DNA from: Escherichia phage DT57C
DNA length: 64,000 nt
Sequence record: NC_027356.1
Reading direction: 5' to 3' (one strand)
Under the pieces are notes generated by a model that did no database searches, was not told the origin of the DNA, and was given only the letters and a program-made list of their open reading frames with translations. Shown in pieces: positions 922 to 32,112 of the stretch (the stretch's first letter is position 1; every line of letters starts with the position of its first letter). A program made the position numbers and the translations under genes.

Positions 922-932
922 TATTTCAGTCA

Positions 933-1334
933 TTAAAATACCAGACCATAAGCCAAAGCATCAGCGATAACAGTAATATCCTCGCCAGATACACCGGAAC
1001 GAATACCGGCGCATGTAAATACCTTCGCGCTCATTAACTGATCATCAAGACAAGCGGGGCAAGGCGCGACAACTGCGAAAGCTAAACCAGCTTTTGCGGC
1101 GTCAATAATAGTCGTTTCTTGTTTCATCGTATCAATGTAAACGCCTTTCGCCTTGATGCGGCTAGATAGCTTGCCCGTGGTGTAGGCGAAAGTAGTGATC
1201 TGTAGCGCCTCATTAAATTCGATTAAGTCATCAACAACGTGCCCCGCCTCGACGTGATAGCGCTCACCGGTAGAATAAACTAGGACGATTGCAGACTGCG
1301 CGCGATCGAATGGGATACGGTTGTAAGTAGTCAT
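933..1334 (-). CDS. Pre-early hypothetical protein (possibly A2-like)
   Basis: 133-aa ORF directly downstream of A1-like gene on same strand; assignment to A2 by position/size only. Confidence 0.45.
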   Translation of the reverse strand: MTTYNRIPFDRAQSAIVLVYSTGERYHVEAGHVVDDLIEFNEALQITTFAYTTGKLSSRIKAKGVYIDTMKQETTIIDAAKAGLAFAVVAPCPACLDDQLMSAKVFTCAGIRSGVSGEDITVIADALAYGLVF

Positions 1335-1403
1335 GCGTATAACTCCAATTAATTTAATAAACTTTTATGGCGGCGGTATATTTCGCCCGCCCGCCTGATT
1401 TAT

Positions 1404-3068: not shown

Positions 3069-3165
3069 AATATTAAAACTCCATTAAAGGGATTAAGAAC
3101 GTTTGTTATTGGCAAATATTGCCAAATATAACGCTGCTTATTAACAGCGTTATAATTTGCAATAC

Positions 3166-3411
3166 TTAACTGATCGGCATCAGGCTAGAACTAACACCAC
3201 AAACAACGGCGGTAATAAAACAAAATAAGCCTAAACGCTTTGCTAACTTTGATTTGCGTTTAAAGTAATATGAATCCAGATCATTCTGGAAATAAGCGAA
3301 CAATAATGAGGCCGCTACAATAAATAAACCTAGAATTAACGATTCAGTGGGATAAAAGATCATTTTAATAATTCCAGTTAAAGGGAAATTATAGTGGGGA
3401 ATATTCCCCAC
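3166..3411 (-). CDS. Small membrane protein (2 predicted TM helices)
   Basis: 81-aa ORF, hydrophobic segments; RBS GGAG 8 nt upstream of ATG. Confidence 0.5.
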   Translation of the reverse strand: MGNIPHYNFPLTGIIKMIFYPTESLILGLFIVAASLLFAYFQNDLDSYYFKRKSKLAKRLGLFCFITAVVCGVSSSLMPIS

Positions 3412-3420
3412 TAATTAAAT

Positions 3421-3837
3421 TTATTCACCTGCGGATTGTTTTACTTCATCTGCTACGCCTAGTAATTGCGCTACGGCGTCCAGCGTTTCTAATTTTGCGC
3501 TTTCCAGACTTGCCAGATCGTCGGCGTCTTTGATAATGCCGGAATCAATGGCATGTTTAGCAATAACGCGCACATAATGCGCCTTGCGGATTGAACTACC
3601 GCCGCCAACTTTGCGCGGTTTATCGCTTTTCTGATACGCTTTTGCGCTGGTCAATTTTGAGCGAACAGACACAGGGGAAGTAGCGCCCACTGTTTTGGCG
3701 ATCTCTTTCAGGCCGTCGCTGTTTGCGAACTCTAAACCGTTTTCATTGATTAATTGCTGATACATAGAAACGGCTTTTTGGGTATTTTCTTCATTCCATG
3801 CAAATTTTGCGGATTTTTCGGTTTTAACGTTAGTCAT
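3421..3837 (-). CDS. Hypothetical pre-early protein
   Basis: 138-aa ORF; conserved initiation region tggagtttataccATG shared with ORF 3938-4189. Confidence 0.55.
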   Translation of the reverse strand: MTNVKTEKSAKFAWNEENTQKAVSMYQQLINENGLEFANSDGLKEIAKTVGATSPVSVRSKLTSAKAYQKSDKPRKVGGGSSIRKAHYVRVIAKHAIDSGIIKDADDLASLESAKLETLDAVAQLLGVADEVKQSAGE

Positions 3838-3937
3838 GGTATAAACTCCAATTAATTTAATTTAAGGGATAAGATTAACATAATGTTAATCGTTATATTT
3901 CCCCAATAGTTCGGGGAAATATAAAGTTAACACTAAA

Positions 3938-4189
3938 CTATGCTACAGCTTCCAATTTTTCGTTACGTTGAACAACTTTTACAACGTCGCCAGATTTAAC
4001 GCGAACACTAAAAACGGTTTTTCCGTTGTTGCTACGTTCCGTTTCTGCATATACTGCATCAATTACATCGAACGGCATGAGCGCCGCGCCTTTGATGCGT
4101 TCGGCCTTTCCGGTTGCCTCGTCTGTTTTAGTAACGAAAGGGATGAAAACGGATTGACCAATTTTTGGCGCGGTGATAGCGTTTTTCAT
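3938..4189 (-). CDS. Hypothetical pre-early protein
   Basis: 83-aa ORF; same conserved RBS/start context as neighbour. Confidence 0.5.
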   Translation of the reverse strand: MKNAITAPKIGQSVFIPFVTKTDEATGKAERIKGAALMPFDVIDAVYAETERSNNGKTVFSVRVKSGDVVKVVQRNEKLEAVA

Positions 4190-4422
4190 GGTATAAACTC
4201 CAGTTATTTGATGGATTGTTCCGCATTACCTGCTAAAAAATAATAACAGGTAATAAGAAAAAATCCGCTCACCGTTAAAATCAATTTAAGGAACTCCACA
4301 CAGGCCGCTATATCCCGTTAGGGGGCGGGGCACATTATGGCAAGTACCGGCCGTCAAATTTTACCAAGTTATCGCTCTTGTTGAATCGGGTACATTTTAA
4401 AGCCTATCGGCTAGGGCGTCAA

Positions 4423-4593
4423 ATTATTTTTCGTTTTCTTTTAAATTAGAATTCTCCCAACTGAATTGCATCTCGCAAAATATTTTCCCATCTTTATGAT
4501 GGTAAGCGATCTCGCTCCCGTGGTTAGCACAGAAAGCGATCACTGCCTCAGCTTGTTCTACCGTGATATTGTTGGCCGTTTCTTTGATTTTCA
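4423..4593 (-). CDS. Small hypothetical protein (~56 aa), not in ORF track (below size cut-off)
   Basis: Read by eye: AAGGAGACGACGAT-ATG; translation MKIKETANNITVEQAEAVIAFCANHGSEIAYHHKDGKIFCEMQFSWENSNLKENEK; coordinates approximate. Confidence 0.3.
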
Positions 4594-5220
4594 TATCGTC
4601 GTCTCCTTATAAGGTTAATAAGTTTGCCGCCGATGGGCTTTAAAATGCACCTGATTTTTAAAGAGCGCGGCGGTAAACTTTCCGCCGTGTAGTTCGTCAT
4701 TGCCGCCCTACGAGATAAATAATAGGGAATACCCAAAAAAGGTGCAACCTTAATTTTGTAAAGAAATGTAAAGAAAGCAAATACCCGCACCGCGTCCGGC
4801 GATCGCCCAAGTTTAAAGGAAACAGGCGCGCGGATACCATAAAACCGAGCTGATTGGCAAGTAATTTTTTCATTTTTATTTGCCTTGCCCTACTTGACAA
4901 AACTTAAAAAGCTCGTGGTGACGATAAACGGGCTATCCCTTTATGATGGGATACCTGAAAAATTTACCGCGTTGTAGGACGTTTTAGGCCGCTTATCTTC
5001 GATTTAACAAATATTTAACAAAAGCAAAATTGAAAAATAGTTTGAGAAGGTATTGACTTTTTAAAATCAAGACTAAACGAGTTATTTTAAAAAATTAATT
5101 AATTGACTTTTATTTGTTGTTGTGTAGTAGAAAGATAGCAGACTAATAATTGCTAGAATGATAATCATGCTGGTGATTGTAACAGACTGAACTATTAGCA
5201 GACTACTGATCCCGGAAAAT

Positions 5221-5260
5221 CTCATTAGCCAACTAACTATCTCATTAGCCAACTAACTAT
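5221..5260. repeat. Direct repeat 2 x 20 bp (ctcattagccaactaactat)
   Basis: Identical tandem copies read directly. Confidence 0.8.
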
Positions 5261-5265
5261 TTCAT

Positions 5266-5450
5266 AAGTTATAATAACTATAAAAATAATCACCGTTAAA
5301 ATAATCACTATAAAAATAATCACCATTAAAATAATAACTATAGAAATAATCACCATTATAATAATCACCATTAAAATAATCACTATAAAAATAATCACCA
5401 TTAAAATAATCACTATAAAAATAATCACCATTATTATAATCACTATAAGA
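5266..5450. repeat. AT-rich tandem repeat block (units ~12/24 bp, aataatcac[ct]a[t]taaaa)
   Basis: ~8 reiterations visible; explains spurious I/V-rich ORF 5237-5443. Confidence 0.8.
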
Positions 5451-5486
5451 AACTATCGGCTTAAGTGAGAACCACTATCATTTAAG

Positions 5487-5568
5487 TTATCCACAACGTT
5501 ATCCACAGCACAAAATGATTTGACACGATAGGCGGCGATATAAAGATTTATCCACAGACTTATCCACA
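5487..5568 (+). promoter_or_regulatory. Cluster of four DnaA boxes (TTATCCACA) in direct orientation
   Basis: Exact 9-mers at 5487, 5499, 5548, 5560; followed by LexA-like half-site ctgtatatttatccag (5579-5594). Confidence 0.6.
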
Positions 5569-5872
5569 GGTTATCCTACTGTATATTTATCCAGGGTAAA
5601 AAGATAGTGTTTACAACTGCAATCAATTTTGAGCGGCCTAAAACGCTTTCTAACGAGCTGATCGCTGTAGGGTAATATTAAAGTAAAGCCTTTACCCGTC
5701 GGCCTAGAGGCTTCGCCGTGTTTTGCTCTTTACTGCACCGCTGCGCGGTTAGCATAAAACTAGGTGTTAGGCAAGAAAAATAAAAAGTAAAGTAAACGTT
5801 GCCCCTAGAAAGAAAATAATTTTACCGGTAACATCGAAAGCGGGTAATAATTAACCTAATGTAAAGTTTTGT

Positions 5873-5902
5873 AAGGCCCGCCATAATCAGCGGCCTTTTT
5901 TG
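5873..5902 (+). terminator. Rho-independent terminator-like hairpin with T6 tract
   Basis: aaggcccgcc...gcggcc stem followed by tttttt. Confidence 0.45.
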
Positions 5903-5965
5903 TTATACTGCCCTTACACCGTTTAAGGACGGTTAAAAATTTCCCGAAAAATTTGGAGGCTTAAA

Positions 5966-6145
5966 ATGGTTATTTTTCGATCTATTCTGGCGGGTATCTT
6001 GGGCGCTATTTTAACTCTATTTGCTACCGCTTACGGTATTCAAGATTCTTATTGCGGTTTAGTAAATACTAAACCTATGGTTATTATTGGCGCGGGTATC
6101 GCTGTTTTTTCTTATTTGCTGGGCTGCATGAATAAAGGAGAATAA
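5966..6145 (+). CDS. Small membrane protein (~59 aa), first gene of small plus-strand operon
   Basis: GGAGG RBS then ATG; hydrophobic translation MVIFRSILAGILGAILTLFATAYG...; not in ORF track (size). Confidence 0.35.
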   Translation: MVIFRSILAGILGAILTLFATAYGIQDSYCGLVNTKPMVIIGAGIAVFSYLLGCMNKGE

Positions 6146-6147
6146 AA

Positions 6148-6360
6148 ATGATCCGCAACGTTTCTCTTGCTCGTTCCAAAGGTTTTAAGCTGGTGGATGT
6201 AAACACGTTCGAGCGTCCTGGTTGTAAAATCGAATATATAGCGCGGAATAAAAACGCTTTCCGCGTTACAGAAAAGAGATTCGATAAACGCGGCAACGTG
6301 ATAGCTGAAACGGTTAAATATTTTGCCACCTTTTACGCGGCCTTTCGTGGGGTATTATGA
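6148..6360 (+). CDS. Hypothetical protein
   Basis: 70-aa ORF; AGGAG RBS; translationally coupled to neighbours. Confidence 0.45.
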   Translation: MIRNVSLARSKGFKLVDVNTFERPGCKIEYIARNKNAFRVTEKRFDKRGNVIAETVKYFATFYAAFRGVL

Positions 6361-6483
6361 AGAGCGTTGTTATTGTTATCCTTGCAATGGTTGGCGGTTT
6401 TACCACCACCTTGTTTAGAAATGATCCTCTTTTGCTAGGGATCTTTATGCTTTTATCTGGTTATCTGATCGGGAGGTTATAAA
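6358..6483 (+). CDS. Small membrane protein (~41 aa)
   Basis: ATG overlaps upstream stop (ATGA); hydrophobic; by-eye call. Confidence 0.25.
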
Positions 6484-6828
6484 ATGGTGATTTATGAAGG
6501 TGATCGCCTTGTTGCTGATTGCCGTCCGGCATTGTTAGCAAACTACTTAAACCAGCTTTCGCCAGTATATAAAGGCGTTATAAATATTTATGAAGGCGGG
6601 GCGCATTATAAGATTAATGCGGTCGTTGCCCGTGAACTAGCGTTTCAATTTTTAACCTTTTCATCTTGCAATATTCAGGTCATGGGTGAGGCGTTAATTG
6701 CAGAAAATGAAGATGATTTTATTAATATCTTTCGCAAGATATGCACCGAGCGCCTGATAATGAAAGGGGCATATATTCAATCCACTGCGGATAGTATTGA
6801 AACGGCTTTTCGAAAGGTGGCACAATGA
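6484..6828 (+). CDS. Hypothetical protein
   Basis: 114-aa ORF; GGAGG RBS 6 nt upstream. Confidence 0.5.
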   Translation: MVIYEGDRLVADCRPALLANYLNQLSPVYKGVINIYEGGAHYKINAVVARELAFQFLTFSSCNIQVMGEALIAENEDDFINIFRKICTERLIMKGAYIQSTADSIETAFRKVAQ

Positions 6829-6952
6829 AGCTATATATTTTCGCGGGTAATGTTGAGGCTGCAAATGATTCCGCTGGTGGCGATAGCGTTCGCCATTATT
6901 GGCAAAATTATATTTACTAGGCGTAATGATCACGGGGCACAACTATCAGGGA

Positions 6953-6979
6953 GTGCCCCTGATTCTCAAATGAGAATGA
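6953..6979 (+). terminator. Hairpin (ggggcac...gtgcccc) at end of small operon
   Basis: 7-bp GC stem read directly; weak U-tract. Confidence 0.3.
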
Positions 6980-7182
6980 TTCTCATTTGACCGCGCCCGC
7001 GATGGTTAGCACACTAATGATTAGGGTGTTACGTGTCGCCTTGTGTGATCGTTAGCGGGCTAACTAATTTTCAAGCCTCCTCCAGATTTGCCCTTGTTTT
7101 AGTATCCCCATCAAAATAAAACGCGTTAGAAAGCGATTCAGGGCGTTTTAGGCCTATATTAGAATTATCCACTGCGTAGGAA

Positions 7183-7202
7183 TACTGTATATTTATACAG
7201 TA
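7183..7202. promoter_or_regulatory. LexA (SOS) box-like palindrome TACTGTATATTTATACAGTA
   Basis: CTGT-N8-ACAG with AT-rich spacer, matches E. coli LexA consensus at nearly all positions. Confidence 0.5.
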
Positions 7203-7211
7203 GAATAACCT

Positions 7212-7292
7212 GGGGATAAGTCGGTGGATAACGCTTCAAAATGGCTAGAATTTTGTCAAGGCAAATCGTGCTGTTGATAAGTCTGTGGATAA
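7212..7292 (-). promoter_or_regulatory. DnaA-box cluster in inverse orientation (TGTGGATAA and variants)
   Basis: Perfect box at 7284-7292, 1-mismatch box at 7224-7232, partial ttatc-core boxes nearby. Confidence 0.5.
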
Positions 7293-7309
7293 CTTAAATA
7301 ACAGTGTTT

Positions 7310-7590
7310 CTCACTTCCGTTTTTAAATGCGAATCATTATCATTTGCATTCCACTTCTTAAATGAGAATCATTTCACTTCTTGAATAGTTCTCATTCCCT
7401 TTCTTAAATGAGAATCATTTCACTTCTTGAATAGTTCTCATTTCACTTCTTGAATAGTTCTCATTCCACTTCTTAAATGAGAATCATTCCACTTCTTAAA
7501 TGAGAATCATTCCACCTCTTAAATGAGAATGATTATCATTCGCATTCCACTTCTTAAATGCGAATGATAATCATTCTCATTCGCATTCCG
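7310..7590. repeat. Tandem array of ~22-bp repeats (cacttctt[a/g]aat[g]agaatcatt), ~10 units, flanked by palindromes
   Basis: Repeats read directly; iteron-like organisation next to DnaA boxes. Confidence 0.8.
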
Positions 7591-7594
7591 GCGA

Positions 7595-7612
7595 GCAGGG
7601 CAATTGCCCTGC
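7595..7612. repeat. Perfect 18-bp palindrome GCAGGGCAATTGCCCTGC
   Basis: Self-complementary sequence read directly. Confidence 0.8.
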
Positions 7613-7617
7613 GCTTA

Positions 7618-8361
7618 TGTGCAAATCCGACAATTGCTCCAAGGGTTACGCGAGGGCATGTATGTGCAAATCCGACCCATTTTTTGGTAGTGTGCAAATC
7701 CGACCCCAAAAATTTATAAATTCGTGAGAGTGACAAATCTGTCTCCCAAAAACTCCAGCAATCACGAACTGCGTTCGAATCCTGTGGGGTATGTGCAAAT
7801 CCGACACGGTTTTTCTAGGATTAAGATGTGCGAATCCGATGAAATTTTTGTGACTTCGATGAGAGGGTGTGTGATTGTATAGGTTTGAGGAGAAGATGAG
7901 AGAGCGAGAAAAATTTTGGGGCTAGAAGTGTATGGGCGCAGGATTGGTGCGGAGCACCTGATTTGCGGGGGTTTTGGGGGATAGTGGAGATAATTTGGGG
8001 AAATTTGAGATAGGTGCAGAAAAAGTAAAATTTTATTAGCTAAAGGGGGCAATATAGCTTGACAATTGAAAATTCTTGTGGCTCTAAAAACTCAGGCAAT
8101 CATGGGCCTTCGGCCCGAAATAATGCTGCTATTTTCAGGAGATTATATGTTCCTAAAAACTTAGGCGTTTGTGCAAATCCGACCATAAATTTCTAGAAAC
8201 ACAATGTGCAAATCCGACAGTAATTCCTGGAAATGTGTTTTCAAAAAATGTCTCCTAGAAATAACCGCCCTCCCTATAACCGCCCTCCCTATAACCGGCC
8301 TAGGTATGTAACGTTGGAGGGAAACTGCCCTAGAATATGTGCAAATCCGATTAATATTTTT
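7618..8361 (+). repeat. Dispersed array of 8 copies of 13-mer TGTGCAAATCCGA(C/T), most followed by N4-6 and a T-run; interleaved CCTAGAA motifs
   Basis: Copies at ~7618, 7663, 7692, 7792, 7827 (variant), 8169, 8206, 8347; a ninth inside CDS at ~10394. Confidence 0.75.
8261..8300. repeat. Direct repeat ataaccgccctccct x2 (+ partial third)
   Basis: Read directly. Confidence 0.7.
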
Positions 8362-8725
8362 GTGTGATCCCTAGAATTTGTGCTTATCAATTTCCTAGAA
8401 ACTTAGGAGTCTGCTAGAAAGTGTTGAGCCATCCTAGCAGATGAGCGGCAACCGGTGTATCATCTTGAACACAGATATTGCCTTTAAATTTTTATCAGTT
8501 ATTTAAAAGTAAATAGTCCCCCATTTCATGTGAGATTCCTCGTGGGGCGCGTGAGTATTACGGAAGACTTAGTAATTAGATCTATACTCGTGCTGTCGCA
8601 ACGTATAGACGTAATACTAAGTGTAATAATCATCGCCCCTAGAGTTCAAAACAAGAGTTGTTTTTAATCTATGAGATTATTATAACATGTTTGGGTATGA
8701 GAATGCAAGAACTTTTTGTTAACGT

Positions 8726-9082
8726 TTATACTTCCTCCTCGAGATTGGTATTAGGATCGTAAATTTTCTTGGCTCCTGTATTTAATAGGAATCGCTCTGC
8801 AAGTAGTGGGTGAATATCAAAGAACTCTGTGCATCCTTCGAATCCCTTTAAATTACAGCGGTATTTCTTAAAGTAGATATGAGCAGCGGCTTCTAGATCT
8901 CTAGGATTATGGGTTTCATAAATCCCATACACGTATAAATCGTCAAAACCACGATAAACTATATTATCTAAGTTTAGTGTTTGAATCCTATTATGTGGAT
9001 TCACACTGATACCGATCTTTGTTCTTTTAGGGATCTTCGTCAGATCCCTATTTGCAAGAATATATGCTTTATATAGTGACAT
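8726..9082 (-). CDS. Hypothetical protein; possible GIY-YIG/T5orf172-like motif (YKAYIL...KIGIS)
   Basis: 118-aa ORF; weak motif resemblance only. Confidence 0.45.
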   Translation of the reverse strand: MSLYKAYILANRDLTKIPKRTKIGISVNPHNRIQTLNLDNIVYRGFDDLYVYGIYETHNPRDLEAAAHIYFKKYRCNLKGFEGCTEFFDIHPLLAERFLLNTGAKKIYDPNTNLEEEV

Positions 9083-9809
9083 TCTTTCTAGCCTTTAGAT
9101 AGATTCCTTTAGATGCTAGATAGATATATGTAGCAAGGAATGAAGATGTAGATCCTGTTTCTTCAAGAGTAATAGATCCTTTTGCATAACGCTTAGTTCT
9201 AGGAGCCTGGTTAAGCACAAGTGCAGTGAGACTACCTAATCCTAGCGCATCCATTAAACGTTTGAAGGAGTCCTTTTCATCGTGGATAGCATATAGAATG
9301 TAATCTTCCGCTGTAGTTAGTTCTATATCGCGATGATGTGCCACTGCAATCCGTGCTACTACAGCTCCAATCGTTCTATAAATATCTTCAAACGTAATGC
9401 TAGTTTCAAAAGCTAATGCTGGAAGATGATCGAACTTACATTTCTTAGGCGGAATAAGAAGTTGTTCAGGATAAGCTTCTAGTGCCTGACGAACGTTTGC
9501 TTCTGGGTATGTTGGCAAAGGTTCATCTATAATAACATGTAAGAAATTAGCTCTGTGTCCTTTAGCAGTTGGATCTAAAGACTTCAATACTTTGTTCATA
9601 TCTACGTATGAATACGCTAGATCTGCTTGTGGGGCATTAATATCAAACTTAATCTTCTTACCCTCCCATTTAGCAGGGAACATCTCACAAACAAACATTA
9701 CTGCATGTTTAACCTCTGGCTCCAGCTCTGATAGACATTTGTGATCTGCTGTTACTGCTAGAGCGAGAATATTCTTAAATTTATTAGCTTCTTCAATCAT
9801 ATATCCCAT
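9069..9809 (-). CDS. Hypothetical protein
   Basis: 246-aa ORF, co-oriented, overlapping stop/start with neighbours. Confidence 0.55.
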   Translation of the reverse strand: MGYMIEEANKFKNILALAVTADHKCLSELEPEVKHAVMFVCEMFPAKWEGKKIKFDINAPQADLAYSYVDMNKVLKSLDPTAKGHRANFLHVIIDEPLPTYPEANVRQALEAYPEQLLIPPKKCKFDHLPALAFETSITFEDIYRTIGAVVARIAVAHHRDIELTTAEDYILYAIHDEKDSFKRLMDALGLGSLTALVLNQAPRTKRYAKGSITLEETGSTSSFLATYIYLASKGIYLKARKNVTI

Positions 9810-10138
9810 GCCTGCTGACTATTATCACTAACTTGTGTCTTTTTCTCTCTTCGTGGTTTAAAAGTTCCTGTAGTATTACTTTTACTAGGTTCTAATTTAT
9901 ACCACAGCATTCCTAGCTGGTTAACCATATGAGCAACATTTCTAGGGGTCAATGGCGGTAGGGATTCACAGTTTGATATCTCCCTTAATATATTAAATAG
10001 TTCTGCCTCTTTAGCTTTATTGTTTACTACCACCACGTACTCTAATGTTTCTACCTCAGAATCCTCATCCTTATAGTAGAGGCTAAGAGTAATTAAATTC
10101 TCCCCAGCAGGGGCTATTTTTGTTTTACCAAATATCAT
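9797..10138 (-). CDS. Hypothetical protein
   Basis: 113-aa ORF in operon context. Confidence 0.5.
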   Translation of the reverse strand: MIFGKTKIAPAGENLITLSLYYKDEDSEVETLEYVVVVNNKAKEAELFNILREISNCESLPPLTPRNVAHMVNQLGMLWYKLEPSKSNTTGTFKPRREKKTQVSDNSQQAWDI

Positions 10139-10734
10139 TAACTACCTCTCTTATCTTCGTTAAGAGCAGCTCCTAGTGCTTCCATAATTGCATCTTCTAT
10201 ACTTCCATGCTTACTAGGATTGCTTAAGTGAATAGTATATGAGTTCCTAGAAACTCCAGAGTCCACAGGTGCTGCGCTTTTCCTATCAGACTCAAAAGCT
10301 TCTTGGGTATGTTTCAACTGTACAGAAGGCCCATAGTCTTCCCCAACTCGATAGGACTGATTAGACGACAGCGTACCACCGCAGGGAACATTGTGCAAAT
10401 CCGATGGATTATTTAATAGTGCAATACCACCTCTTGGCCACGAGTCACTAACATGAGTACTAGGACGGTTAACCTCAGTCTTCACGAGTTTATAACCAGC
10501 ATCTATTAATGCATTAATAAGGTTATCAGCTGGAATGCGAGCCTTGCCAAAAATCTCACGAGCGTTGTTGAGCCTACCTTCAAAACCTTTACATGCTCTA
10601 ATATTAGTGTGTGCAAAGGTTAGCTTCATAGATTTGAATTGTACAGTAGCAGTTAAATCTTTAAAGCTATAATCCCACGTATTCAGTTCATGATCTGGTA
10701 CTACTTGAATAGATTGCTGTGCATATAAAGTCAT
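10138..10734 (-). CDS. Hypothetical protein
   Basis: 198-aa ORF; contains one copy of the 13-mer motif. Confidence 0.55.
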   Translation of the reverse strand: MTLYAQQSIQVVPDHELNTWDYSFKDLTATVQFKSMKLTFAHTNIRACKGFEGRLNNAREIFGKARIPADNLINALIDAGYKLVKTEVNRPSTHVSDSWPRGGIALLNNPSDLHNVPCGGTLSSNQSYRVGEDYGPSVQLKHTQEAFESDRKSAAPVDSGVSRNSYTIHLSNPSKHGSIEDAIMEALGAALNEDKRGS

Positions 10735-10919
10735 TATTTATTCTCCAGTTTGTCTAACAGCTTATGAGCTGCTAGATTATATTGTTTAAGCTCACGGTTA
10801 AGAATCTCATTCTCACTATTTAATTCTAAATTCTTAGTATTGAGGCGGCTGCACACAATTATCAAGCCTAGGATGGTTAAGAGTGAGCCACCTAGTAATA
10901 CAAGAAGTAATGTTCCCAT
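10734..10919 (-). CDS. Small membrane protein
   Basis: 61-aa ORF with N-terminal TM segment. Confidence 0.45.
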   Translation of the reverse strand: MGTLLLVLLGGSLLTILGLIIVCSRLNTKNLELNSENEILNRELKQYNLAAHKLLDKLENK

Positions 10920-11152
10920 TATTTGATTCCCATGTAACGTTTGAGATATACGATAAAGTCTTCCGCTTTATGTTCTAGGCTACCTTGAGCCACGAATAAC
11001 TTGAGAGCTTCACGCTGTTGTTTGAGATTAGTAACTTCGCTACGCAACTTCACGTTATCGTCAATAACCTGATTGGCTTCACGAGTCTTATGCACAGCAG
11101 TGCTAATAGCAAATACTAATGCAATTGCTAAGATAATTAATATATATTCCAT
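10919..11152 (-). CDS. Small membrane protein
   Basis: 77-aa ORF with N-terminal TM segment. Confidence 0.45.
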   Translation of the reverse strand: MEYILIILAIALVFAISTAVHKTREANQVIDDNVKLRSEVTNLKQQREALKLFVAQGSLEHKAEDFIVYLKRYMGIK

Positions 11153-11442
11153 TAGTTACTCCAAATTAACATCCAACTCTTATCAAGGTTAGATGCTCTA
11201 TTAATTAATTCGCCCATAGAAATGTTATTGTTGCCTATGGCTTCTTGTACAAACTCTTTACCGAAATCATCTACTAGGTATTCTGTATCATTTATAATAA
11301 TCTTGTAGAGAGCTGGGACTAAAGGATGTTGATGATTAAGAGGACTCTCGTTAACAATTATCTCATTCCTTCCCCACGTCGTCTTGAACATTTTGTGGGA
11401 GAGTAGAGCTAAGTGGTTTGACCATACAATATAGCTACTCAC
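11152..11442 (-). CDS. Hypothetical protein
   Basis: 96-aa ORF. Confidence 0.45.
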   Translation of the reverse strand: MSSYIVWSNHLALLSHKMFKTTWGRNEIIVNESPLNHQHPLVPALYKIIINDTEYLVDDFGKEFVQEAIGNNNISMGELINRASNLDKSWMLIWSN

Positions 11443-11983
11443 TACTTATCTCCATTCTTAACTTTGAGAACTTATTATACCAAACTATATGATTATCGTC
11501 AATTACAAATTTATGATAACATGCTGGTACGGTATAAGTTCCATAATCCGTGACACGCTGCACAACCTTGTGTGCACACAGTCGACATCCATGCCCTTCT
11601 AAATGAGATCTAGCAGTCTGCCAGTAATAACCATCGTGGTCTGGACAATAGATCTCAACTTGCTGTTGCATTGTTTTATAGTTTACACGCTCATACCCAA
11701 AGAAAGCCCCATGAGCTGCAATGGCTTTCTTGATAAATATAAGGTTTAGTGCTTCTTGTTGAAAGTCGGGGTGTAGCTGCTTAATCTTAGTTCTATTAAT
11801 AGACCCATCCGATTTGATGAACCTATTTATTGGAAAGTTATTAGCTTCCTCGATTAATAATTCATTTACTTTCTCTCTCATATTATATGCTCTCACAACT
11901 AAGGTGGAAACATTCGTAAGCATCCCCAGTAAACTCTTTACCCTGTAATAAACACTTAGCCTGGTCTTCTGGTACTCCAACAT
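11435..11983 (-). CDS. Hypothetical Cys/His-rich protein (possible Zn-binding); true start may be internal Met (~11881)
   Basis: 182-aa ORF; 5' end overlaps ORF 11883-12086 so an internal start is likely. Confidence 0.45.
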   Translation of the reverse strand: MLEYQKTRLSVYYRVKSLLGMLTNVSTLVVRAYNMREKVNELLIEEANNFPINRFIKSDGSINRTKIKQLHPDFQQEALNLIFIKKAIAAHGAFFGYERVNYKTMQQQVEIYCPDHDGYYWQTARSHLEGHGCRLCAHKVVQRVTDYGTYTVPACYHKFVIDDNHIVWYNKFSKLRMEISSE

Positions 11984-12086
11984 CTAATAATTGTTGTTTA
12001 CTTGGCTTTTCAGCAAATACCTTTACAAAATACTCACCATCCTGATTATATTCATTTATACCTCTAGTAAGGACATATACTTGCAT
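11883..12086 (-). CDS. Hypothetical protein
   Basis: 67-aa ORF. Confidence 0.4.
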   Translation of the reverse strand: MQVYVLTRGINEYNQDGEYFVKVFAEKPSKQQLLDVGVPEDQAKCLLQGKEFTGDAYECFHLSCESI

Positions 12087-12109
12087 TTGAAGTTCCTTGA
12101 AAACATAAA

Positions 12110-12135
12110 AGGCCAGAACAATTAAGTCCTGGCCT
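12110..12135 (-). terminator. Hairpin (aggccag...ctggcct) between ORFs
   Basis: 7-bp GC-rich stem; T-rich flank on minus strand. Confidence 0.4.
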
Positions 12136-12142
12136 CCTAAAA

Positions 12143-12580
12143 TTAATGAAGTTGTTTACCACTTCTTAACATAGTGGCCGTTTCCATAAGACCTAGCGTA
12201 GTATCACGCTTATTGATCTGTTTACCAAGTTCATCAGTACGTTTACTGATGTAAGCATTAATAGCCATATTCATAGCTGTAGCGAGATCTTCTTTGGTTA
12301 TCTCTTCATCATCTAAAGCTAGGTTAGCCAAAGAATCAAATGTGCTAGAGAGTCCTACAAGATCTGAGGTTTCTCCAGCCAAAATAGGATTAATATTATC
12401 TACTGTTACTTCTAGCATGGAGTTAACAATATCTTCACCGTCTATTAGACCAAATTCAATATTACTCTCCCACTCCTTCATCTGTTCCAGCAATGGATTT
12501 TTCTTTTCTGTCATGATAGAGGTTTCCTGTGTCAGTTGGTAAGAAGGATGATTGTGTCTTAGGAGGATGTTGCTTAGCAA
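12143..12580 (-). CDS. Hypothetical acidic protein (start probably internal)
   Basis: 145-aa ORF overlapping upstream ORF. Confidence 0.45.
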   Translation of the reverse strand: MLSNILLRHNHPSYQLTQETSIMTEKKNPLLEQMKEWESNIEFGLIDGEDIVNSMLEVTVDNINPILAGETSDLVGLSSTFDSLANLALDDEEITKEDLATAMNMAINAYISKRTDELGKQINKRDTTLGLMETATMLRSGKQLH

Positions 12581-12923
12581 TCCAGTTAAGAATCAGCACG
12601 CGACTAGGAACAATATCGGTATTATACCAAAAATCGTGAACCCATTGACGAGCATCTTCAAACTTACCAAATTTATACGCTTTCTTAAACAATTCAAATC
12701 CAAAACAATCTGGTGTAAAGTCTACTTCGCGATATTGAACTACTTTAGAGCCAGTTAGGTCTTGGATCGCTGCATTAATTTCTGTATGTGAGAATTTTGT
12801 TTCATGAAACTTATTAAAGAATCGGTAGTTGAAGCGTCCGTTCGTTTCGACAAATAACTGGATGAAGAGATCGTTAAATTGGTTATCAAACCAGTAATTC
12901 TGTAGTTGTTGTAGTGCTGTCAT
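12462..12923 (-). CDS. Hypothetical protein
   Basis: 153-aa ORF. Confidence 0.5.
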   Translation of the reverse strand: MTALQQLQNYWFDNQFNDLFIQLFVETNGRFNYRFFNKFHETKFSHTEINAAIQDLTGSKVVQYREVDFTPDCFGFELFKKAYKFGKFEDARQWVHDFWYNTDIVPSRVLILNWIAKQHPPKTQSSFLPTDTGNLYHDRKEKSIAGTDEGVGE

Positions 12924-13120
12924 TTACGAACCCCGTTAATTGCCACAATGATGCCTTCGTACATAAAAGGAAGTAACCCAGAAGTATAGAATATATTTTC
13001 CGTTATTCCTAGATGTCGAAAAAGTATATTAAATAATGCTGTTAGAAATACAATCTGAGGAAGTAATACAAAATACTCAGTTACAATCTTTGGTGCTTGA
13101 TAAACAAGACGTTTTATCAT
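12920..13120 (-). CDS. Small membrane protein
   Basis: 66-aa hydrophobic ORF. Confidence 0.4.
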   Translation of the reverse strand: MIKRLVYQAPKIVTEYFVLLPQIVFLTALFNILFRHLGITENIFYTSGLLPFMYEGIIVAINGVRK

Positions 13121-13219
13121 TGTTTTTAAGTCTCCTTATTACTTTGGCCTGCTCCACAATAATGAAAACTGCGAGCACTAATAGTGCTATTAGCCCCGCA
13201 GTAATTGGTACTAAATCAA

Positions 13220-13564
13220 TCATGGGAGACGCCATACGTAATTAGCTGTCTGTAGAACTTCGGAAACATCATCATGTTGCATCACTACAGACGTTGGAGA
13301 GTAACTATCCGCCAGTTCTGTACGAACCATCTCACGTTCTTCTCCAGTATCAATATTTTTAACAATCACTTTCATACTAAGAGGTGTTAATGCAGAAAGT
13401 GGTTTCCAAGAATCCTCAAGTTCAACCCCTACCTTTTTCTCGATTAACATGAGAACTTCTAGTGTATCATCTGGAATACTAATATTATTATTTACAAACT
13501 GTAACAGCTCATGCAAAGTATTTAACTCATTGAAATTAAGTTTCATCTTTAATAATATCCTCAA
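13220..13564 (-). CDS. Hypothetical protein
   Basis: 114-aa ORF. Confidence 0.5.
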   Translation of the reverse strand: MRILLKMKLNFNELNTLHELLQFVNNNISIPDDTLEVLMLIEKKVGVELEDSWKPLSALTPLSMKVIVKNIDTGEEREMVRTELADSYSPTSVVMQHDDVSEVLQTANYVWRLP

Positions 13565-13781
13565 TCATATCACAGGACTGTTGCAATTCGTCAGCAATGC
13601 GCTTAACATCGGTCTTCGTCACTTTACCAATTAACATCACCAGTAACATAGAAAGTATAATAAGTGGTACTGGGATAACAAATAATGCTACCTTAGCTAT
13701 ATTCTTTGGTGTCCAAGTGCGGTACTTAGTAACTAGAACTCCCACCACGACTAGATAAAATGCTAGAATAAACATTATCAT
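13536..13781 (-). CDS. Small membrane protein
   Basis: 81-aa ORF, two hydrophobic segments. Confidence 0.45.
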   Translation of the reverse strand: MIMFILAFYLVVVGVLVTKYRTWTPKNIAKVALFVIPVPLIILSMLLVMLIGKVTKTDVKRIADELQQSCDMIEDIIKDET

Positions 13782-14059
13782 TTTTTAATCTCCGTGATTA
13801 TCTGTGTACGCATTACTTTAGCAGGTAATTTATTATTCCCAACTATTGCTTCTATATTATTTAATTTTTCTTTAAGAATATCCGAGCGTCTTTGTGCTAT
13901 TTCAATATCTTGTTCTTGCTCTATTAACCGGTGGTGTAGTCCATCATTAGTAATAAGCATACTTTCCATGTTTTTCCGTGCGTTTACAATCCCAATAACT
14001 CCACCAATCGCTACTAGCGTAGTAAGGACCAGTAACCCAATAAGAATTTCAATCAACAT
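13778..14059 (-). CDS. Small membrane protein
   Basis: 93-aa ORF with N-terminal TM. Confidence 0.45.
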   Translation of the reverse strand: MLIEILIGLLVLTTLVAIGGVIGIVNARKNMESMLITNDGLHHRLIEQEQDIEIAQRRSDILKEKLNNIEAIVGNNKLPAKVMRTQIITEIKK

Positions 14060-14081
14060 TAATTATATACTCCCCTAGCCC

Positions 14082-14351
14082 TTATTTCTTACCTTTCAGT
14101 TGCTTAACTTCACGCTCAAAAGATGCTGCACGACGTTCGGCGGTTGCCTGATGCTCTTTAGCAAAACGTGCTTCTTGTTTTGCAAGGTTGAATGCCATAG
14201 CGTTCTTATTAAGAGAATCGTACATCTTTTTCATTGCTGGGATGGACATTTTCATCAGTTGCCCCTCAAATCCTTGCATATCGAGGAGAATTGCCAGAAC
14301 GTTAGCCATTTCATTTTTAGTCATGTTTTCCATTATAATTTCCTCTCTCAT
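14082..14351 (-). CDS. Hypothetical protein
   Basis: 89-aa ORF directly downstream of consensus early promoter. Confidence 0.55.
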   Translation of the reverse strand: MREEIIMENMTKNEMANVLAILLDMQGFEGQLMKMSIPAMKKMYDSLNKNAMAFNLAKQEARFAKEHQATAERRAASFEREVKQLKGKK

Positions 14352-14364
14352 TAATTTATGAACT

Positions 14365-14393
14365 TATTATACAGAATTTTGAGGTTTAAAGCA
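14365..14393 (-). promoter_or_regulatory. Sigma70-type early promoter (TTGCTT-17-TATAAT)
   Basis: -10 at 14365-14370 and -35 at 14388-14393 (plus-strand coords), AT-rich upstream, conserved downstream aaattaatgagagagg RBS region. Confidence 0.6.
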
Positions 14394-14411
14394 ACTGAAT
14401 TTTTTAATTAC

Positions 14412-14840
14412 TTACCAATCGTTAACGAAACCTGAGAACTCAGAAGTTAATACTTGTTCAAATTTCTCTGCAATTTCAGGATGATCTTTGCAGATCAGCT
14501 CAATACATGCTTCTGGAGTCATTCCTTCATCTTCAGGATCACCATAATACTTGTCCCAAAGATCATCAGGGATGATGTGCTCTGCCAAATCTTGGAAATA
14601 GACTGCCTGATAACGTGGGGCTTCTTCAGCAAAGAGTTCTTCGATCTCTTCATCTGCCTCACCTTTGTAATCTGCCATTAATAGGGCATCAGTTGCGTAA
14701 CACTCCCAAACCATCAAGCGTTCAGAAATAGGATTAGACTTATCCTGAACGTAAGACTGAAACAGGGTTCGGAAAGTTGCCTTAACTTGTTCAAATTTAT
14801 CTGCTGCTGCGAAAACTAGAGCTTTATCAACTTTGTTCAT
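14412..14840 (-). CDS. Hypothetical acidic protein
   Basis: 142-aa ORF. Confidence 0.55.
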   Translation of the reverse strand: MNKVDKALVFAAADKFEQVKATFRTLFQSYVQDKSNPISERLMVWECYATDALLMADYKGEADEEIEELFAEEAPRYQAVYFQDLAEHIIPDDLWDKYYGDPEDEGMTPEACIELICKDHPEIAEKFEQVLTSEFSGFVNDW

Positions 14841-14870
14841 TTTTATTCCTTCTCATCAATTTATAAAGTA

Positions 14871-14899
14871 ATTATACAGAAACTTAGGCATTTTAGCAA
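14871..14899 (-). promoter_or_regulatory. Sigma70-type early promoter (TTGCTA-17-TATAAT)
   Basis: -10 14871-14876, -35 14894-14899. Confidence 0.6.
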
Positions 14900-15007
14900 A
14901 TAAAACTTTTAATTAAAATGCCTAGTCCTGTACCAACAGCAATACAAATGATTATAAGTATTGCTACTGCTTGTATGATTCGTTTAATAATAACCTCAGC
15001 TATACAC

Positions 15008-25020: not shown

Positions 25021-25220
25021 TATGCCAACTAACTATTATGTTTTACTAGACTAAGTAAGTATTCTTTATACTCTTTAGACCAGCTAGCTTTTTTAAACTT
25101 TCCTGGACGCATAGTCTTAATTCCTAGATTTGGTACTCCGGGAGGGATTTAACCCTGATCTCTCGGTTATCCGCCGAGTGCTTTGGATCGCTAAGCTACC
25201 GAAGCATTAAAATATTTACA

Positions 25221-25511
25221 TCACACACTGTCTAAGTAAGAAGTATAATGGAATTTAGTTTCTCCAGTCTTATCTACTTCTACCTCAGTTCGTGGTACTT
25301 GACGAACCACACCATGAATCATCTTATAGCGAATGCCTTTAGCTGGTTCATGATCTTTTGGAAATACTTGTTTAACCGTTACTACTTTATATCCTTCACG
25401 CGGTGTTAACACTACTACTTGATCCCCCTCTTTGATTTTCCAAGAGGGTGGAAATTCATAGGTGTATCTTTGGCCACCAATTTGTAATACTACAGAAAGA
25501 TAACGTTTCAT
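25221..25511 (-). CDS. Hypothetical protein
   Basis: 96-aa ORF directly downstream of early promoter. Confidence 0.5.
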   Translation of the reverse strand: MKRYLSVVLQIGGQRYTYEFPPSWKIKEGDQVVVLTPREGYKVVTVKQVFPKDHEPAKGIRYKMIHGVVRQVPRTEVEVDKTGETKFHYTSYLDSV

Positions 25512-26406: not shown

Positions 26407-26630
26407 AATTGAAAACTCGCAGGGTTAGCGAAACCATCCTCAATTAGCATGTTCTAGAATACTAATCAAGTTATCTACTATTGCACGCAGCTCAAGACGA
26501 GTACGAATTTTCAATTGTGGCGGCTCTCAGAAACTCTTCTACTCTAGTCTTAGCAGCTTACTCCCGAACGCATGTCGGGGAAGTCTTACCAAGAGCATCA
26601 AATAGCACCGTTACACTTTGAGCCATTATT

Positions 26631-26725
26631 TGGAGGTAGGTAAGGGGATCGAACCCTTACACCGTATCACTACGATCAACCGATTTCAAGTCGGAGTCCA
26701 GCGCCAGCCGTTGGATTGACTTACC
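26631..26725 (-). tRNA. Long tRNA, probable tRNA-Ser (anticodon UGA)
   Basis: T-arm AAGGG-TTCGATC-CCCTT, long variable region, anticodon loop CU-UGA-AA. Confidence 0.4.
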
Positions 26726-26737
26726 ATATAAGTTGTT

Positions 26738-26829
26738 TGGCGGAAGAGGAGAGATTTGAACTCTCAAGCCGTTTTACCAGTCAGCCACTTTCCAAGCGGT
26801 TTTCGTCGCCAATTCGATTTGCTCTTCCA
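26738..26829 (-). tRNA. Long tRNA, probable tRNA-Ser (anticodon GGA)
   Basis: Perfect acceptor GGAAGAG/CTCTTCC, T-arm GAGAG-TTCAAAT-CTCTC, long variable arm. Confidence 0.5.
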
Positions 26830-27921: not shown

Positions 27922-27996
27922 TGGCGCGACCGATGGGATTTGAACCCACATTCCCCGTGACAGGGGAGTACCATTACCAAGCCAGCCCCTGTCGCA
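27922..27996 (-). tRNA. tRNA (anticodon not resolved)
   Basis: Acceptor GCGACAG/CGGTCGC (1 mismatch), T-arm GTGGG-TTCAAAT-CCCAT, CCA encoded. Confidence 0.45.
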
Positions 27997-28292: not shown

Positions 28293-28372
28293 TGGCGGGC
28301 CGTGTAGGATTCGAACCACCAACCCCGAAGGGCACGGATTTACAGACCGCTGCAATAGCCATTCTGCCAACG
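28293..28372 (-). tRNA. tRNA-like element (possible tRNA-Tyr-like anticodon loop CU-GUA-AA); stems imperfect
   Basis: T-loop TTCGAAT and variable-arm hairpin CCC-TTCG-GGG present, but acceptor/T stems do not pair cleanly. Confidence 0.25.
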
Positions 28373-30882: not shown

Positions 30883-30916
30883 GTATTTCCTTTGTTTTAG
30901 TTACAGTTAATAAAAT

Positions 30917-30991
30917 TGGCCGAGGTGACAGGATTCGAACCTGCATAAAGGAATTTAGAAGACTCCTGCCTCTCCCTTAGACTACACCCCG
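30917..30991 (-). tRNA. tRNA, probable tRNA-Arg (anticodon UCU)
   Basis: Acceptor CGGGGTG/CACCTCG, T-arm GCAGG-TTCGAAT-CCTGT, loop CU-UCU-AA. Confidence 0.5.
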
Positions 30992-31492
30992 TTTAAGTAT
31001 TTTTAAGAACTCTCGTAAAAACTCTTAAAAATACAGACGATACCGGGAGAGTCATAAGTCTCACTCATTAAGTATTTCAAGACAAAATACAGTAACGTCT
31101 ATTATTTTCCAGTTTAAGTCAAGGTGACTTAGTGGTTATGCCCTGCGGTATACTGAGGACTCGGTTAGGCTAGGGTCATGACTCCCCGCTTTTTGCTGCT
31201 ACTCAACAGGAATTATCGCGAATTACCTGTGCTATTGTGCACCATTAGTGGCATCTCTCATGCCAGCATTTCCCACTTTGTGGATAGTTTGAAAAACTAC
31301 TCCGATATGGAGGGAGAACTTCACTATCCTAGAATACCTTCTAAAGTTCTTCTTTAGCCTGGACATAGTTAAATCGTAATAAAACTATTCAGCAGACTGG
31401 TTGATTAGCCTGGAACCAACTACCGCGTGGTTTAGGCAGTGCGCAACTAACCTCGGAAGCTTTTACGTTAAAAGCACCAGTTATCCAGCTCT

Positions 31493-31562
31493 TACCGATC
31501 GTAGGATTCGAACCTACATCTTCCACCAGTTACGGCTTGATAATACCGTTTATACTAGATCG
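31493..31562 (-). tRNA. tRNA-like (anticodon not resolved; no encoded CCA)
   Basis: Perfect T-arm GTAGG-TTCGAAT-CCTAC and acceptor GCCGATC/GATCGGT. Confidence 0.35.
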
Positions 31563-31640
31563 GCAGTGTTACTACATAAGTGATTTCCACACCCCACCAT
31601 CAATAAATTAGGGAAGAATTACTCTCTAATTTATGAATAT

Positions 31641-31669
31641 ATTATACAGAATTTATAAGCATTTAGCAA
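31641..31669 (-). promoter_or_regulatory. Sigma70-type early promoter (TTGCTA-17-TATAAT)
   Basis: -10 31641-31646, -35 31664-31669; transcribes toward tRNA-like gene and ORF-free 31000-31490. Confidence 0.55.
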
Positions 31670-31677
31670 ATGAATTT

Positions 31678-32112
31678 TTAGAAAAATTCACTAGCAATCA
31701 GAGCGGCTGTTTTACCATCATAACGCCCTGGAAACTCTGCCTTAATAGTTTTCATTAAGAGAGCTTTGGTAATACCTGGGTTTAGCTTAACCAATTCTGC
31801 AAAATATTTACGAATTTCGGTTTCAGTCAGTTGACTTGGCTGATACTCTTGCAGCATGAAATAAAGCAGTTGCTCGTAGTCTACATCAGTAGGAACTTTC
31901 GTACCAACTTTAATAGCACGCTGCTTTGCAGTTTCTAGAGCTTTAATCTGGGCTTTCAGATAAGCTACGAACTCGGTTCGAGTAACAACGTCTTTATTAA
32001 TGCGTTGCAAGTCACCAATCATAGTCTGGAGATTGATTGCCCGCTCTTTGTCACCGTGGATACGTGCTAGACTAAGCAGTCCACGAAGGGTCATTAGAAT
32101 ATTTTCACCCAT
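31678..32112 (-). CDS. Hypothetical protein
   Basis: 144-aa ORF; start overlaps stop of upstream small ORF. Confidence 0.5.
   Translation of the reverse strand: MGENILMTLRGLLSLARIHGDKERAINLQTMIGDLQRINKDVVTRTEFVAYLKAQIKALETAKQRAIKVGTKVPTDVDYEQLLYFMLQEYQPSQLTETEIRKYFAELVKLNPGITKALLMKTIKAEFPGRYDGKTAALIASEFF

Follow-up and report, generated by a model that had tools for sequence, protein, structure and literature searches.

What is encoded by a stretch of about 500 nucleotides (nt) that lies among the transfer RNA (tRNA) genes of a phage, downstream of a near-consensus promoter, and that holds no credible open reading frame (ORF)? The question is raised by positions 30992-31491 in 64,000 nt of the genome of Escherichia phage DT57C (NC_027356.1; this whole stretch is called the window below), for which an earlier note, made from the letters alone, had proposed a non-tRNA stable RNA. 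We found that the interval is the body of RNAX, a ~600 nt RNA of T5-like phages (Demerecviridae) that runs here from about 31598 to 30995 on the minus strand, and the proposal thus agrees with the rnaX annotation given by the depositors of T5, BF23 and DT571/2. Since the element is already annotated in public records, it is no new discovery. The analysis of its structure is new, i.e., a domain model with an embedded, CCA-less tRNA-like domain and palindromic loops; the annotation gives neither structure nor function, and our search of the accessible literature on RNAX, the T5 stable RNAs and BF23 yielded no paper on RNAX and no reported structure or function.

The region 30900-31700 is 99.5% identical to Escherichia phage DT571/2 (Tequintavirus), identifying the window as that of a T5-like phage, and sequences similar to this region are present in 584 phage records. 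In the reference records for rnaX (AY543070, AJ604530 and KM979355; T5, BF23 and DT571/2), GenBank carries the misc_RNA feature 'rnaX: RNAX, stable RNA with unknown functions' between the promoter P16-17 and tRNA-Arg(UCU), with annotated lengths of 636 nt in DT571/2, 784 nt in BF23 and 719 nt in T5. The minus strand of the interval matched these annotated genes over 100% of its length, with 99.6% (DT571/2), 97.8% (BF23) and 92.4% (T5) identity. The order of the locus is also the same, with T5.081 upstream, followed by P16-17, RNAX, tRNA-Arg(UCU) and, downstream, T5.080. Taken together, it is highly probable that a structured non-coding RNA truly exists here and that it is the annotated rnaX. 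Its two flanks, a consensus promoter and tRNA-Arg(UCU), had been named in the earlier note and were both recovered, as were all other elements named there, with offsets of 1-3 nt:

31641-31669, minus strand: sigma-70-type promoter TTGCTA-17-TATAAT, found by consensus scan with 10/12 matches (read as 31669-31641 in the direction of transcription) and aligned with the annotated P16-17 of T5 and BF23

30917-30991, minus strand: tRNA-Arg(UCU) with an encoded CCA, found by ARAGORN and Rfam

Conservation of the promoter extends to T5, BF23, SE3 and Klebsiella phage Riker.

Standard gene classes did not account for the interval. In positions 30992-31491 ARAGORN detected neither a tRNA nor a transfer-messenger RNA (tmRNA), and no Rfam 15 family was matched at E ≤ 10, either in the scan of the window or when the 656-nt element was searched alone. 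When scans at the gathering score and at E ≤ 10 were applied to the window, the element alone and six relatives, only the tRNA-like element described below was recovered within RNAX. The Rfam/Infernal scan that the earlier note had called for therefore yielded no family, and the interval did not resolve into standard tRNAs. The balanced base composition that had been remarked on was confirmed (41% GC compared with 39% in the window), and the two strings quoted as examples of local complementarity turned out to be the plus-strand complements of the conserved islands CCACUAAGUCACC (I7/I8) and GGGGAGUCAUGACCC (the I6 hairpin).

The absence of a credible ORF was likewise borne out. Several GenBank records call hypothetical ORFs here, and the automatic annotations of some relatives thus assume that one or more small proteins are encoded; the ORFs of the window, 44-60 amino acids long, could be read in the same way. 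We give this explanation practically no credence, because none of these ORFs keeps its position, strand or length among the relatives, the indels are not multiples of three, the conserved islands lack codon periodicity, and the substitutions compensate for RNA pairing.

The 500-nt interval matched 502 phage records, with ~96% identity in Tequintavirus, 72-86% in some Epseptimavirus and matching blocks only in other lineages. Pairwise comparisons with Klebsiella phage Riker, Erwinia phage KEY and Pectobacterium phage My1 revealed short, colinear conserved islands between variable or swapped modules, and these islands are present in Tequintavirus, Epseptimavirus, Sugarlandvirus, KEY and My1, the last of which belongs to another subfamily. 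Their order is as follows:

5' part: leader GUGGGGUGUSGAAA...AACACU; tRNA-like element; AAGAGYUGGAUAACU; CUAAACCAC; AAGUGGGAAA

3' part: GGGAGUCAUGACC; AUAACCAC; AGUCACCUUGACUUAAACUGGAAGAUA; CUUAAU; terminal 38-nt hairpin

The length of the element ranges from ~566 nt up to ~890 nt in the Klebsiella phages. ORFs have been inserted at two hotspots, one separating the promoter from the leader (SE3, mar003J3 and vaffelhjerte) and one separating tRNA-Arg from the terminal hairpin (SB9, bobsandoy, My1, KEY and the Klebsiella phages). Some of these ORFs are annotated or recognisable as HNH endonucleases, and none lies inside RNAX (loci L004, L005, L039, L040, L041, L043, L042 and L007), suggesting that the element is protected as a unit. 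Its distribution is narrow: pattern scans of IMG/VR recovered it in T5-like genomes only (about 105-123 kilobases), the leader pattern had 0 matches in 185,579 bacterial and archaeal species genomes, and a covariance model of the 5' domain found one copy per phage. A scan of metagenomes with the hairpin pattern gave 16 matches, namely six T5-like contigs and ten chance hits. Most of the chance hits were located inside apparent coding sequence, such as methyltransferase-like ORFs (L045, L049, L051, L055 and L058), and the codons matched in L049 and L055 translate as LREAKRVLK, which calls for caution in pattern-based scans.

Two differences in length were noticed among the relatives. In most of them, a ~148-nt extra module (longer in Stitch) is located between P16-17 and the leader, at about 14259-14421 in BF23 (L002) and about 930-1140 in Stitch (L006). 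This module, which has no Rfam match, is missing in the window (about 31599-31633) and in DT571/2 and is therefore dispensable for the core RNA. T5 (L003, about 1585-1670) has an 83-nt insertion within RNAX, a direct repeat that duplicates the AGUCACCUUGAC-UAAACUGGAA island near I8 and that the window lacks.

The earlier note had also suggested that conservation of structure among relatives be examined, and the interval proved to be conserved with structural covariation. For the 5' domain we used an alignment of 26 distinct sequences (A1), to which RNAalifold and then counts of base pairs were applied; as controls, the pairing partners were slid by 1-3 columns and 500 shuffles were made. The domain comprises the following parts:

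31566-31598, minus strand: 5' leader with island I1 GUGG (31594-31597), the 5' strand of a leader-trailer helix (31571-31584) and an invariant AACACU (RNAalifold, pair counts)

31492-31565, minus strand: tRNA-like cloverleaf with conserved acceptor stem and T-arm, a hypervariable anticodon arm and no CCA (ARAGORN, Rfam)

31459-31491, minus strand: 3' strand of the leader-trailer helix (31476-31489) and the hairpin GCUUU-UAACGUA-AAAGC (31459-31475) (RNAalifold, pair counts)

31426-31452, minus strand: hairpin (31435-31452) and island I4 AAACCAC, the CCAC of which (31427-31430) is the partner of I1 in the helix closing the 5' domain (RNAalifold, pair counts)

RNAalifold paired GUGG over a long range with the CCAC of the CUAAACCAC island and joined the leader by a 12-base-pair helix to the sequence directly 3' of the tRNA-like element; the acceptor stem, the T-arm and the following hairpin were recovered as well. 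Across the 35 pairs of the domain, 99.6% of the alignment cells were paired, compared with 30-41% in the slid controls, and 20 of the 35 pairs showed two-sided changes. Such changes affected two of the four pairs of the I1:I4 helix, which reads AUGG/CCAU in bobsandoy and ACGG/CCGU in My1, seven of the 12 pairs of the leader-trailer helix and three of the five pairs of the hairpin at 31459-31475. The equivalents of the hairpin at 31435-31452, read from A1, are GGCAG/CUGCC in SB9 and GACAG/CUGUC in bobsandoy.

The tRNA-like gene that had been placed at the edge of the interval was found at 31492-31565 on the minus strand by ARAGORN (as 'Ser-ACU') and by the Rfam tRNA model (RF00005; 39 bits compared with a gathering score of 29). 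Its decoding part is not maintained. Depending on the lineage, ARAGORN called the anticodon as Ser-ACU, SeC-UCA, Pro-UGG, Leu-UAG or not at all, the latter in Klebsiella phages, in which the anticodon arm is expanded. The element is followed by AGAG and not by CCA, whereas CCA is encoded by each of the 13 real tRNA genes of the window, so neither a constant anticodon arm nor an encoded 3' CCA was found. Because it lacks CCA and its anticodon arm varies freely, we regard the element as a structural domain and not as a decoding tRNA. The earlier note had pictured a transcript that passes through a separate tRNA-like gene before it reaches the interval; such an element does exist, but the covariation of the leader-trailer and GUGG/CCAC helices around it indicates that it is enclosed in the larger RNA and is a domain of the same molecule.

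A tRNA-shaped part that is embedded in a longer transcript, keeps its acceptor stem and T-arm and has an anticodon region that does not decode is reminiscent of the tRNA-like domain of tmRNA and of the MALAT1 mascRNA. RNAX differs from both in that a covarying leader-trailer helix extends its acceptor stem and that it has no CCA and no tag reading frame. Excision and aminoacylation of the tRNA-like domain are doubtful owing to this extended stem and the missing CCA. We had considered tmRNA itself as a candidate, since a tRNA-like module, a module compatible with a pseudoknot and the CUUAAU island are present, and discarded it after negative ARAGORN and Rfam results and frames of 2-3 codons before the UAA. 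More generally, RNAX could belong to a class already known (tmRNA, RNase P RNA, group I or II intron, ROOL, GOLLD or OLE) and have diverged too far for the models to detect it, as the three features just named loosely recall tmRNA and its size and setting in a phage tRNA island recall ROOL and GOLLD. This is hardly credible, given that ARAGORN found no tmRNA and Rfam 15 nothing at E ≤ 10 in the window and six relatives, that the short frame up to the UAA is unconserved, and that the tRNA-like part is a complete cloverleaf on the 5' side instead of a split acceptor/T-arm domain. The scans at E ≤ 10 likewise gave no match to the models of RNase P RNA, group I and II introns and self-cleaving ribozymes, nor, in the window and six relatives, to those of ROOL, GOLLD and OLE.

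For the 3' half of RNAX, sub-alignments (A1, A3 and A5) and folds for each lineage were used in place of one global alignment. A de novo helix search over all pairs of columns was abandoned as too noisy, with many chance helices of 4 base pairs. The following features were delineated:

31282-31425, minus strand: mosaic middle with hairpins at 31400-31420 and 31365-31388 and a 73-nt module of four helices at 31283-31355 (pair counts)

31132-31279, minus strand: domain 2, a five-way junction closed by I5 GUGG (31273-31276) and I7 CCAC (31132-31135) (RNAalifold, pair counts)

31250-31264, minus strand: arm P-a of domain 2

minus strand: arm P-b of domain 2

31206-31230, minus strand: arm P-c of domain 2, with the loop palindrome UCGCGA at 31216-31221

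31167-31190, minus strand: arm P-d of domain 2, with the 8-nt loop AGUCAUGA at 31176-31183

31140-31160, minus strand: arm P-e of domain 2

31103-31129, minus strand: island I8, the hairpin AGUCA-CCU-UGACU followed by the single-stranded, conserved UAAACUGGAAAAUA (predicted fold)

31035-31100, minus strand: 3' domain, in which an outer helix (31090-31100/31035-31045) surrounds two hairpins, giving a three-way junction, with the CUUAAU island (minimum free energy (MFE) folds)

30997-31034, minus strand: terminal A/U-rich hairpin with 18 predicted pairs, a UACG loop and no U-tract (fold prediction)

The 73-nt module of the window is also present in Klebsiella phage Riker and Salmonella phage bobsandoy. 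In this module, 99.6% of the cells were paired, compared with 39-54% in the slid controls, and three pairs showed two-sided changes. It is compatible with an H-type pseudoknot and two hairpins, of which a hairpin and pseudoknot stem 2 covary. In domain 2, 96.1% of the cells of 38 pairs were paired, compared with 32-45% in the slid controls, ten pairs had two-sided changes, and the closing helix becomes CACGG/CCGUG in My1. Island I8 is conserved in Tequintavirus, Epseptimavirus and the Klebsiella phages and may alternatively pair with I6. A long-range I6:I8 pairing in place of the local hairpins seemed to covary in My1 but gained no support from KEY and a second My1-like phage (L096). A pairing between I6 and AUGACUCUCCC of the 3' domain was dropped as a general feature because it is specific to the window and missing in SE3 and SB9. 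The three-way junction of the 3' domain appeared in independent MFE folds of the window/T5, SE3, Sugarland, Stitch, KEY and My1, whose sequences are unrelated in this part. With regard to the strand, consensus folding energies spoke for the minus strand in both the 5' domain and the middle module and were neutral for domain 2; the minus strand also agrees with the many conserved G-U pairs and with the orientation of the promoter and tRNAs. A weak promoter-like site inside domain 2 (TGCACA-18-GATAAT, 9/12 matches, 31212-31241, minus strand) is probably a chance match, as the scan yields fewer sites than shuffles do.

This record of covariation bears on whether the locus is non-functional debris, made up of decayed tRNA genes and the scars of mobile elements (HNH endonucleases) in a plastic tRNA region. 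The region is indeed mosaic, with modules swapped among phages and HNH ORFs on either side, the first module is tRNA-like, and the tRNA region is a dispensable hotspot of deletions (PMC12483538). Nevertheless, we judge decay very unlikely, as ~95 base pairs have been maintained by compensatory changes, invariant single-stranded islands persist across subfamilies and the interval scores no tRNA even at E ≤ 10.

Only 5 nt separate the terminal hairpin from tRNA-Arg. The hairpin is found a single time in the window, where chance would give 0 copies, and is ~90% identical even in Pectobacterium phage My1; lacking a U-tract, it is not an intrinsic terminator. Its position raises the possibility that RNAX is a structured 5' leader or processing cassette only, which would control the maturation or yield of tRNA-Arg(UCU) and T5.080 in cis, e.g., through entry sites for RNase III or RNase P, and would have no function after cleavage. 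RNAX forms one transcription unit with tRNA-Arg and T5.080, the sole terminator-like site being located at 29911-29880, and the leader-trailer helix and the 18-base-pair hairpin may resemble substrates of the RNase III type. However, SB9, bobsandoy, My1, KEY and the Klebsiella phages keep RNAX intact even though ORFs of 0.5-0.6 kilobases or several small genes separate the hairpin from tRNA-Arg, the other tRNAs of the window have no such leader, and 600-890 nt with several covarying junction domains far exceed the needs of tRNA processing. A role as a cis-acting leader alone is therefore unlikely.

RNAX acts as an RNA, not as an mRNA or a tRNA, and its function is accessory. The viable deletion mutant T5 st0 (AY692264), in which a truncated T5.081 is fused directly to tRNA-Asp, has lost RNAX, tRNA-Arg and T5.080, so that RNAX is accessory under laboratory conditions. 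The tRNA-rich 'del-1' region of T5 tolerates deletions of 200-15,000 base pairs (PMC12483538).

We propose that RNAX, tRNA-Arg(UCU) and T5.080 would be transcribed as one unit by host RNA polymerase, starting at the near-consensus early promoter P16-17, that cleavage by RNase P at the 5' end of tRNA-Arg probably sets the 3' end of RNAX and that the 18-base-pair terminal hairpin probably protects this end. In the fold shown by covariation, domain 1 is closed by the long-range GUGG/CCAC helix, with the cloverleaf seated on the 12-base-pair leader-trailer helix; in the numbering of this scheme, domains 2-5 follow in the order mosaic middle with the pseudoknot-compatible module, five-way junction, three-way junction and terminal hairpin.

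Two loops of the five-way junction may point to the mode of action. In the apical loop of P-c, a GC-rich palindrome is kept while its sequence differs by lineage:

Window, SE3 and SB9: UCGCGA

T5: CGCGCG

bobsandoy: CUCGAG

vaffelhjerte: GUGCGCAC

Klebsiella phages: CCGCGG

Two My1-like phages: GUGCAC, in a hairpin taken as equivalent, the stem of which also covaries

KEY and L014: CGCG only

The 8-nt loop AGUCAUGA of P-d, in which the palindrome UCAUGA is embedded, is near-invariant across lineages. With two self-complementary loops, each molecule could join others in dimers or larger assemblies, suggesting that RNAX may self-associate via kissing loops. Palindromic kissing loops mediate the dimerisation of HIV-1 RNA at the dimerisation initiation site, and loop-loop contacts the multimerisation of the phi29 pRNA; the apical loops of RNAX, with 6-8 self-complementary nt and a palindrome kept through sequence change, would be comparable, with modest statistical support.

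A further parallel might be the ROOL and GOLLD RNAs, large 'ornate' RNAs of phages and prophages at tRNA islands, which were found by cryo-electron microscopy to form RNA-only cages (PMC12286853). RNAX shares several of their characteristics, being phage-encoded, 600-900 nt long, located at a tRNA island and folded into multiple junctions, and having no known function (PMC12286853). It thus combines the context of an ornate RNA, i.e., a phage-encoded RNA of >500 nt beside a tRNA island, with a covarying multi-junction structure. ROOL and GOLLD are homo-oligomers, and the two palindromic apical loops of RNAX could allow it to self-associate; GOLLD sometimes carries tRNAs within its linker, and RNAX an embedded tRNA-like domain. 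RNAX differs in its conserved sequences and has so far been found in Demerecviridae of enterobacteria only. As the family models do not match, membership of RNAX in ROOL or GOLLD is rejected, and the resemblance is one of context and architecture only. Smaller non-tRNA RNAs also occur beside phage tRNAs in T4, where species 1 and 2 (rnaC and rnaD; roughly 120-140 nt) are co-transcribed with the tRNAs of the cluster and are dispensable and of unknown function; the likeness to RNAX is by description, the T4 RNAs being far smaller.

By analogy with ROOL and GOLLD, we tentatively favour a mode of action in which RNAX would be a stable RNA scaffold that self-associates via the two palindromic apical loops and displays its tRNA-like elbow, a reading that is plausible rather than probable. 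The next most likely mode, for which we hold a lower expectation, is that of a decoy or partner that would mimic tRNA towards a tRNA-binding factor, such as the YqeY-like protein encoded upstream, RNase P or a host defence nuclease. A bolder version is rather improbable and is put forward as a conjecture: RNAX might represent a third, uncatalogued class of ornate phage RNA that self-assembles via the kissing loops of P-c and P-d and displays a non-decoding tRNA-like elbow on which tRNA-binding factors (the YqeY-like protein, RNase P, ribosomes or tRNA-targeting defence nucleases) would dock during T5 infection.

Several observations weigh against RNAX as a structured, self-associating RNA. The label 'stable RNA' is the depositors' annotation alone. 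The folding energy of the single sequence is only mildly below that of shuffles (z = -1.5), so the case for RNAX rests on comparative evidence, and in the 5' domain, where none of the 500 shuffles attained the values observed, this control overstates the significance since few independent lineages were sampled. The pseudoknot of the middle module is compatible with the data and not proven, because stem 1 shows only GC-to-GU changes and zero two-sided ones. The 3' half is mosaic, and its types could not be aligned globally by MAFFT/RNAalifold; L028, SB9, bobsandoy and Riker pair differently in the MFE folds of the 3' domain, and the shared three-way junction rests on the remaining representatives and on manual inspection. 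For the P-c loops, composition-preserving shuffles gave per-loop probabilities of 0.29, 0.16, 0.07, 0.008 and 0.11, a signal that is suggestive. The equivalence of the loops is positional only in vaffelhjerte, the Klebsiella phages and the My1-like phages, GGUGCAC of My1 may instead match a strand of P-b of the window, and the palindrome is reduced in KEY and L014. Neither the ROOL nor the GOLLD model matches RNAX, and the viability of T5 st0 without it means that RNAX has no essential role.

Recent work on PARIS and retron Eco7 reportedly showed that the tRNA region of T5 holds defence triggers as well as anti-defence tRNAs. Among phages, T5 is a classical model, and RNAX is a large RNA of strongly conserved structure located in this region, together with anti-defence tRNAs and T5.058, the phage trigger of DRT9 abortive infection (PMC12483538). 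A direct link between RNAX and DRT9 was considered and discarded, as the escaper mutations map to promoter P11 and T5.058 instead (PMC12483538). RNAX has been annotated for about twenty years, yet it has no Rfam entry. Specialists will not be surprised by the RNAX of T5 itself; an uncatalogued, ornate RNA of 600 nt in a tractable phage is worth pursuing. The domain model offers targets for experiments, namely the leader-trailer clamp, the two palindromic loops and the terminal hairpin, and T5 st0, as a natural deletion of RNAX, is a ready control. If RNAX did self-assemble or sequester tRNA-binding factors, a phenomenon of the ROOL/GOLLD type would extend to a genetically tractable phage of enterobacteria.

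The gene upstream of RNAX provides one candidate for such a factor:

31678-32112, minus strand: T5.081, a YqeY/GatB-C-terminal-like protein, outside RNAX (Pfam, PHROG, profile)

T5.081 matched the Pfam family YqeY at E = 5e-4 (20.6 bits, under the cutoff of 27) and PHROG 1460 ('tRNA amidotransferase') at E = 8e-42, and a profile of its homologues matched YqeY in PDB entry 1ng6 over nearly its full length (E = 0.0096). In Tequintavirus, Epseptimavirus, KEY and My1 the gene precedes RNAX, whereas the Klebsiella loci examined lack it. The tail domain of GatB contacts the D-loop of tRNA. T5.081 may thus be a tRNA-binding partner of RNAX, which, being backed by weak YqeY homology and synteny, we offer as a lead only. 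Downstream of RNAX, T5.080 encodes an SPFH/Band-7 protein. Between the window and T5 (L003, 580-1011), T5.081 is 60% identical, whereas T5.080 is 99% identical, pointing to allelic replacement or diversifying selection at T5.081.

Further observations concern other parts of the window. The second, similar gap that the earlier note had pointed out at 26410-26630 corresponds to two annotated RNAs on the minus strand, rnaIII (about 26408-26513) and rnaI (about 26518-26624), with 96-97% identity to DT571/2 and BF23 and no Rfam family for either. A 96-amino-acid ORF at 25221-25511 (minus strand) occupies the position that DT571/2 annotates as the T5.058 homologue. Several matches to tRNA models on the minus strand had been missed by ARAGORN: an Rfam tRNA at 25134-25205 (43.5 bits); weak matches to the tRNA-Sec model at 26635-26725 and 26742-26828, where DT571/2 has tRNA-Ser(UGA) and tRNA-Ser(GGA); and sub-threshold tRNA matches at 27925-27995 and 28301-28372, where DT571/2 annotates tRNA-Asp and rna3.

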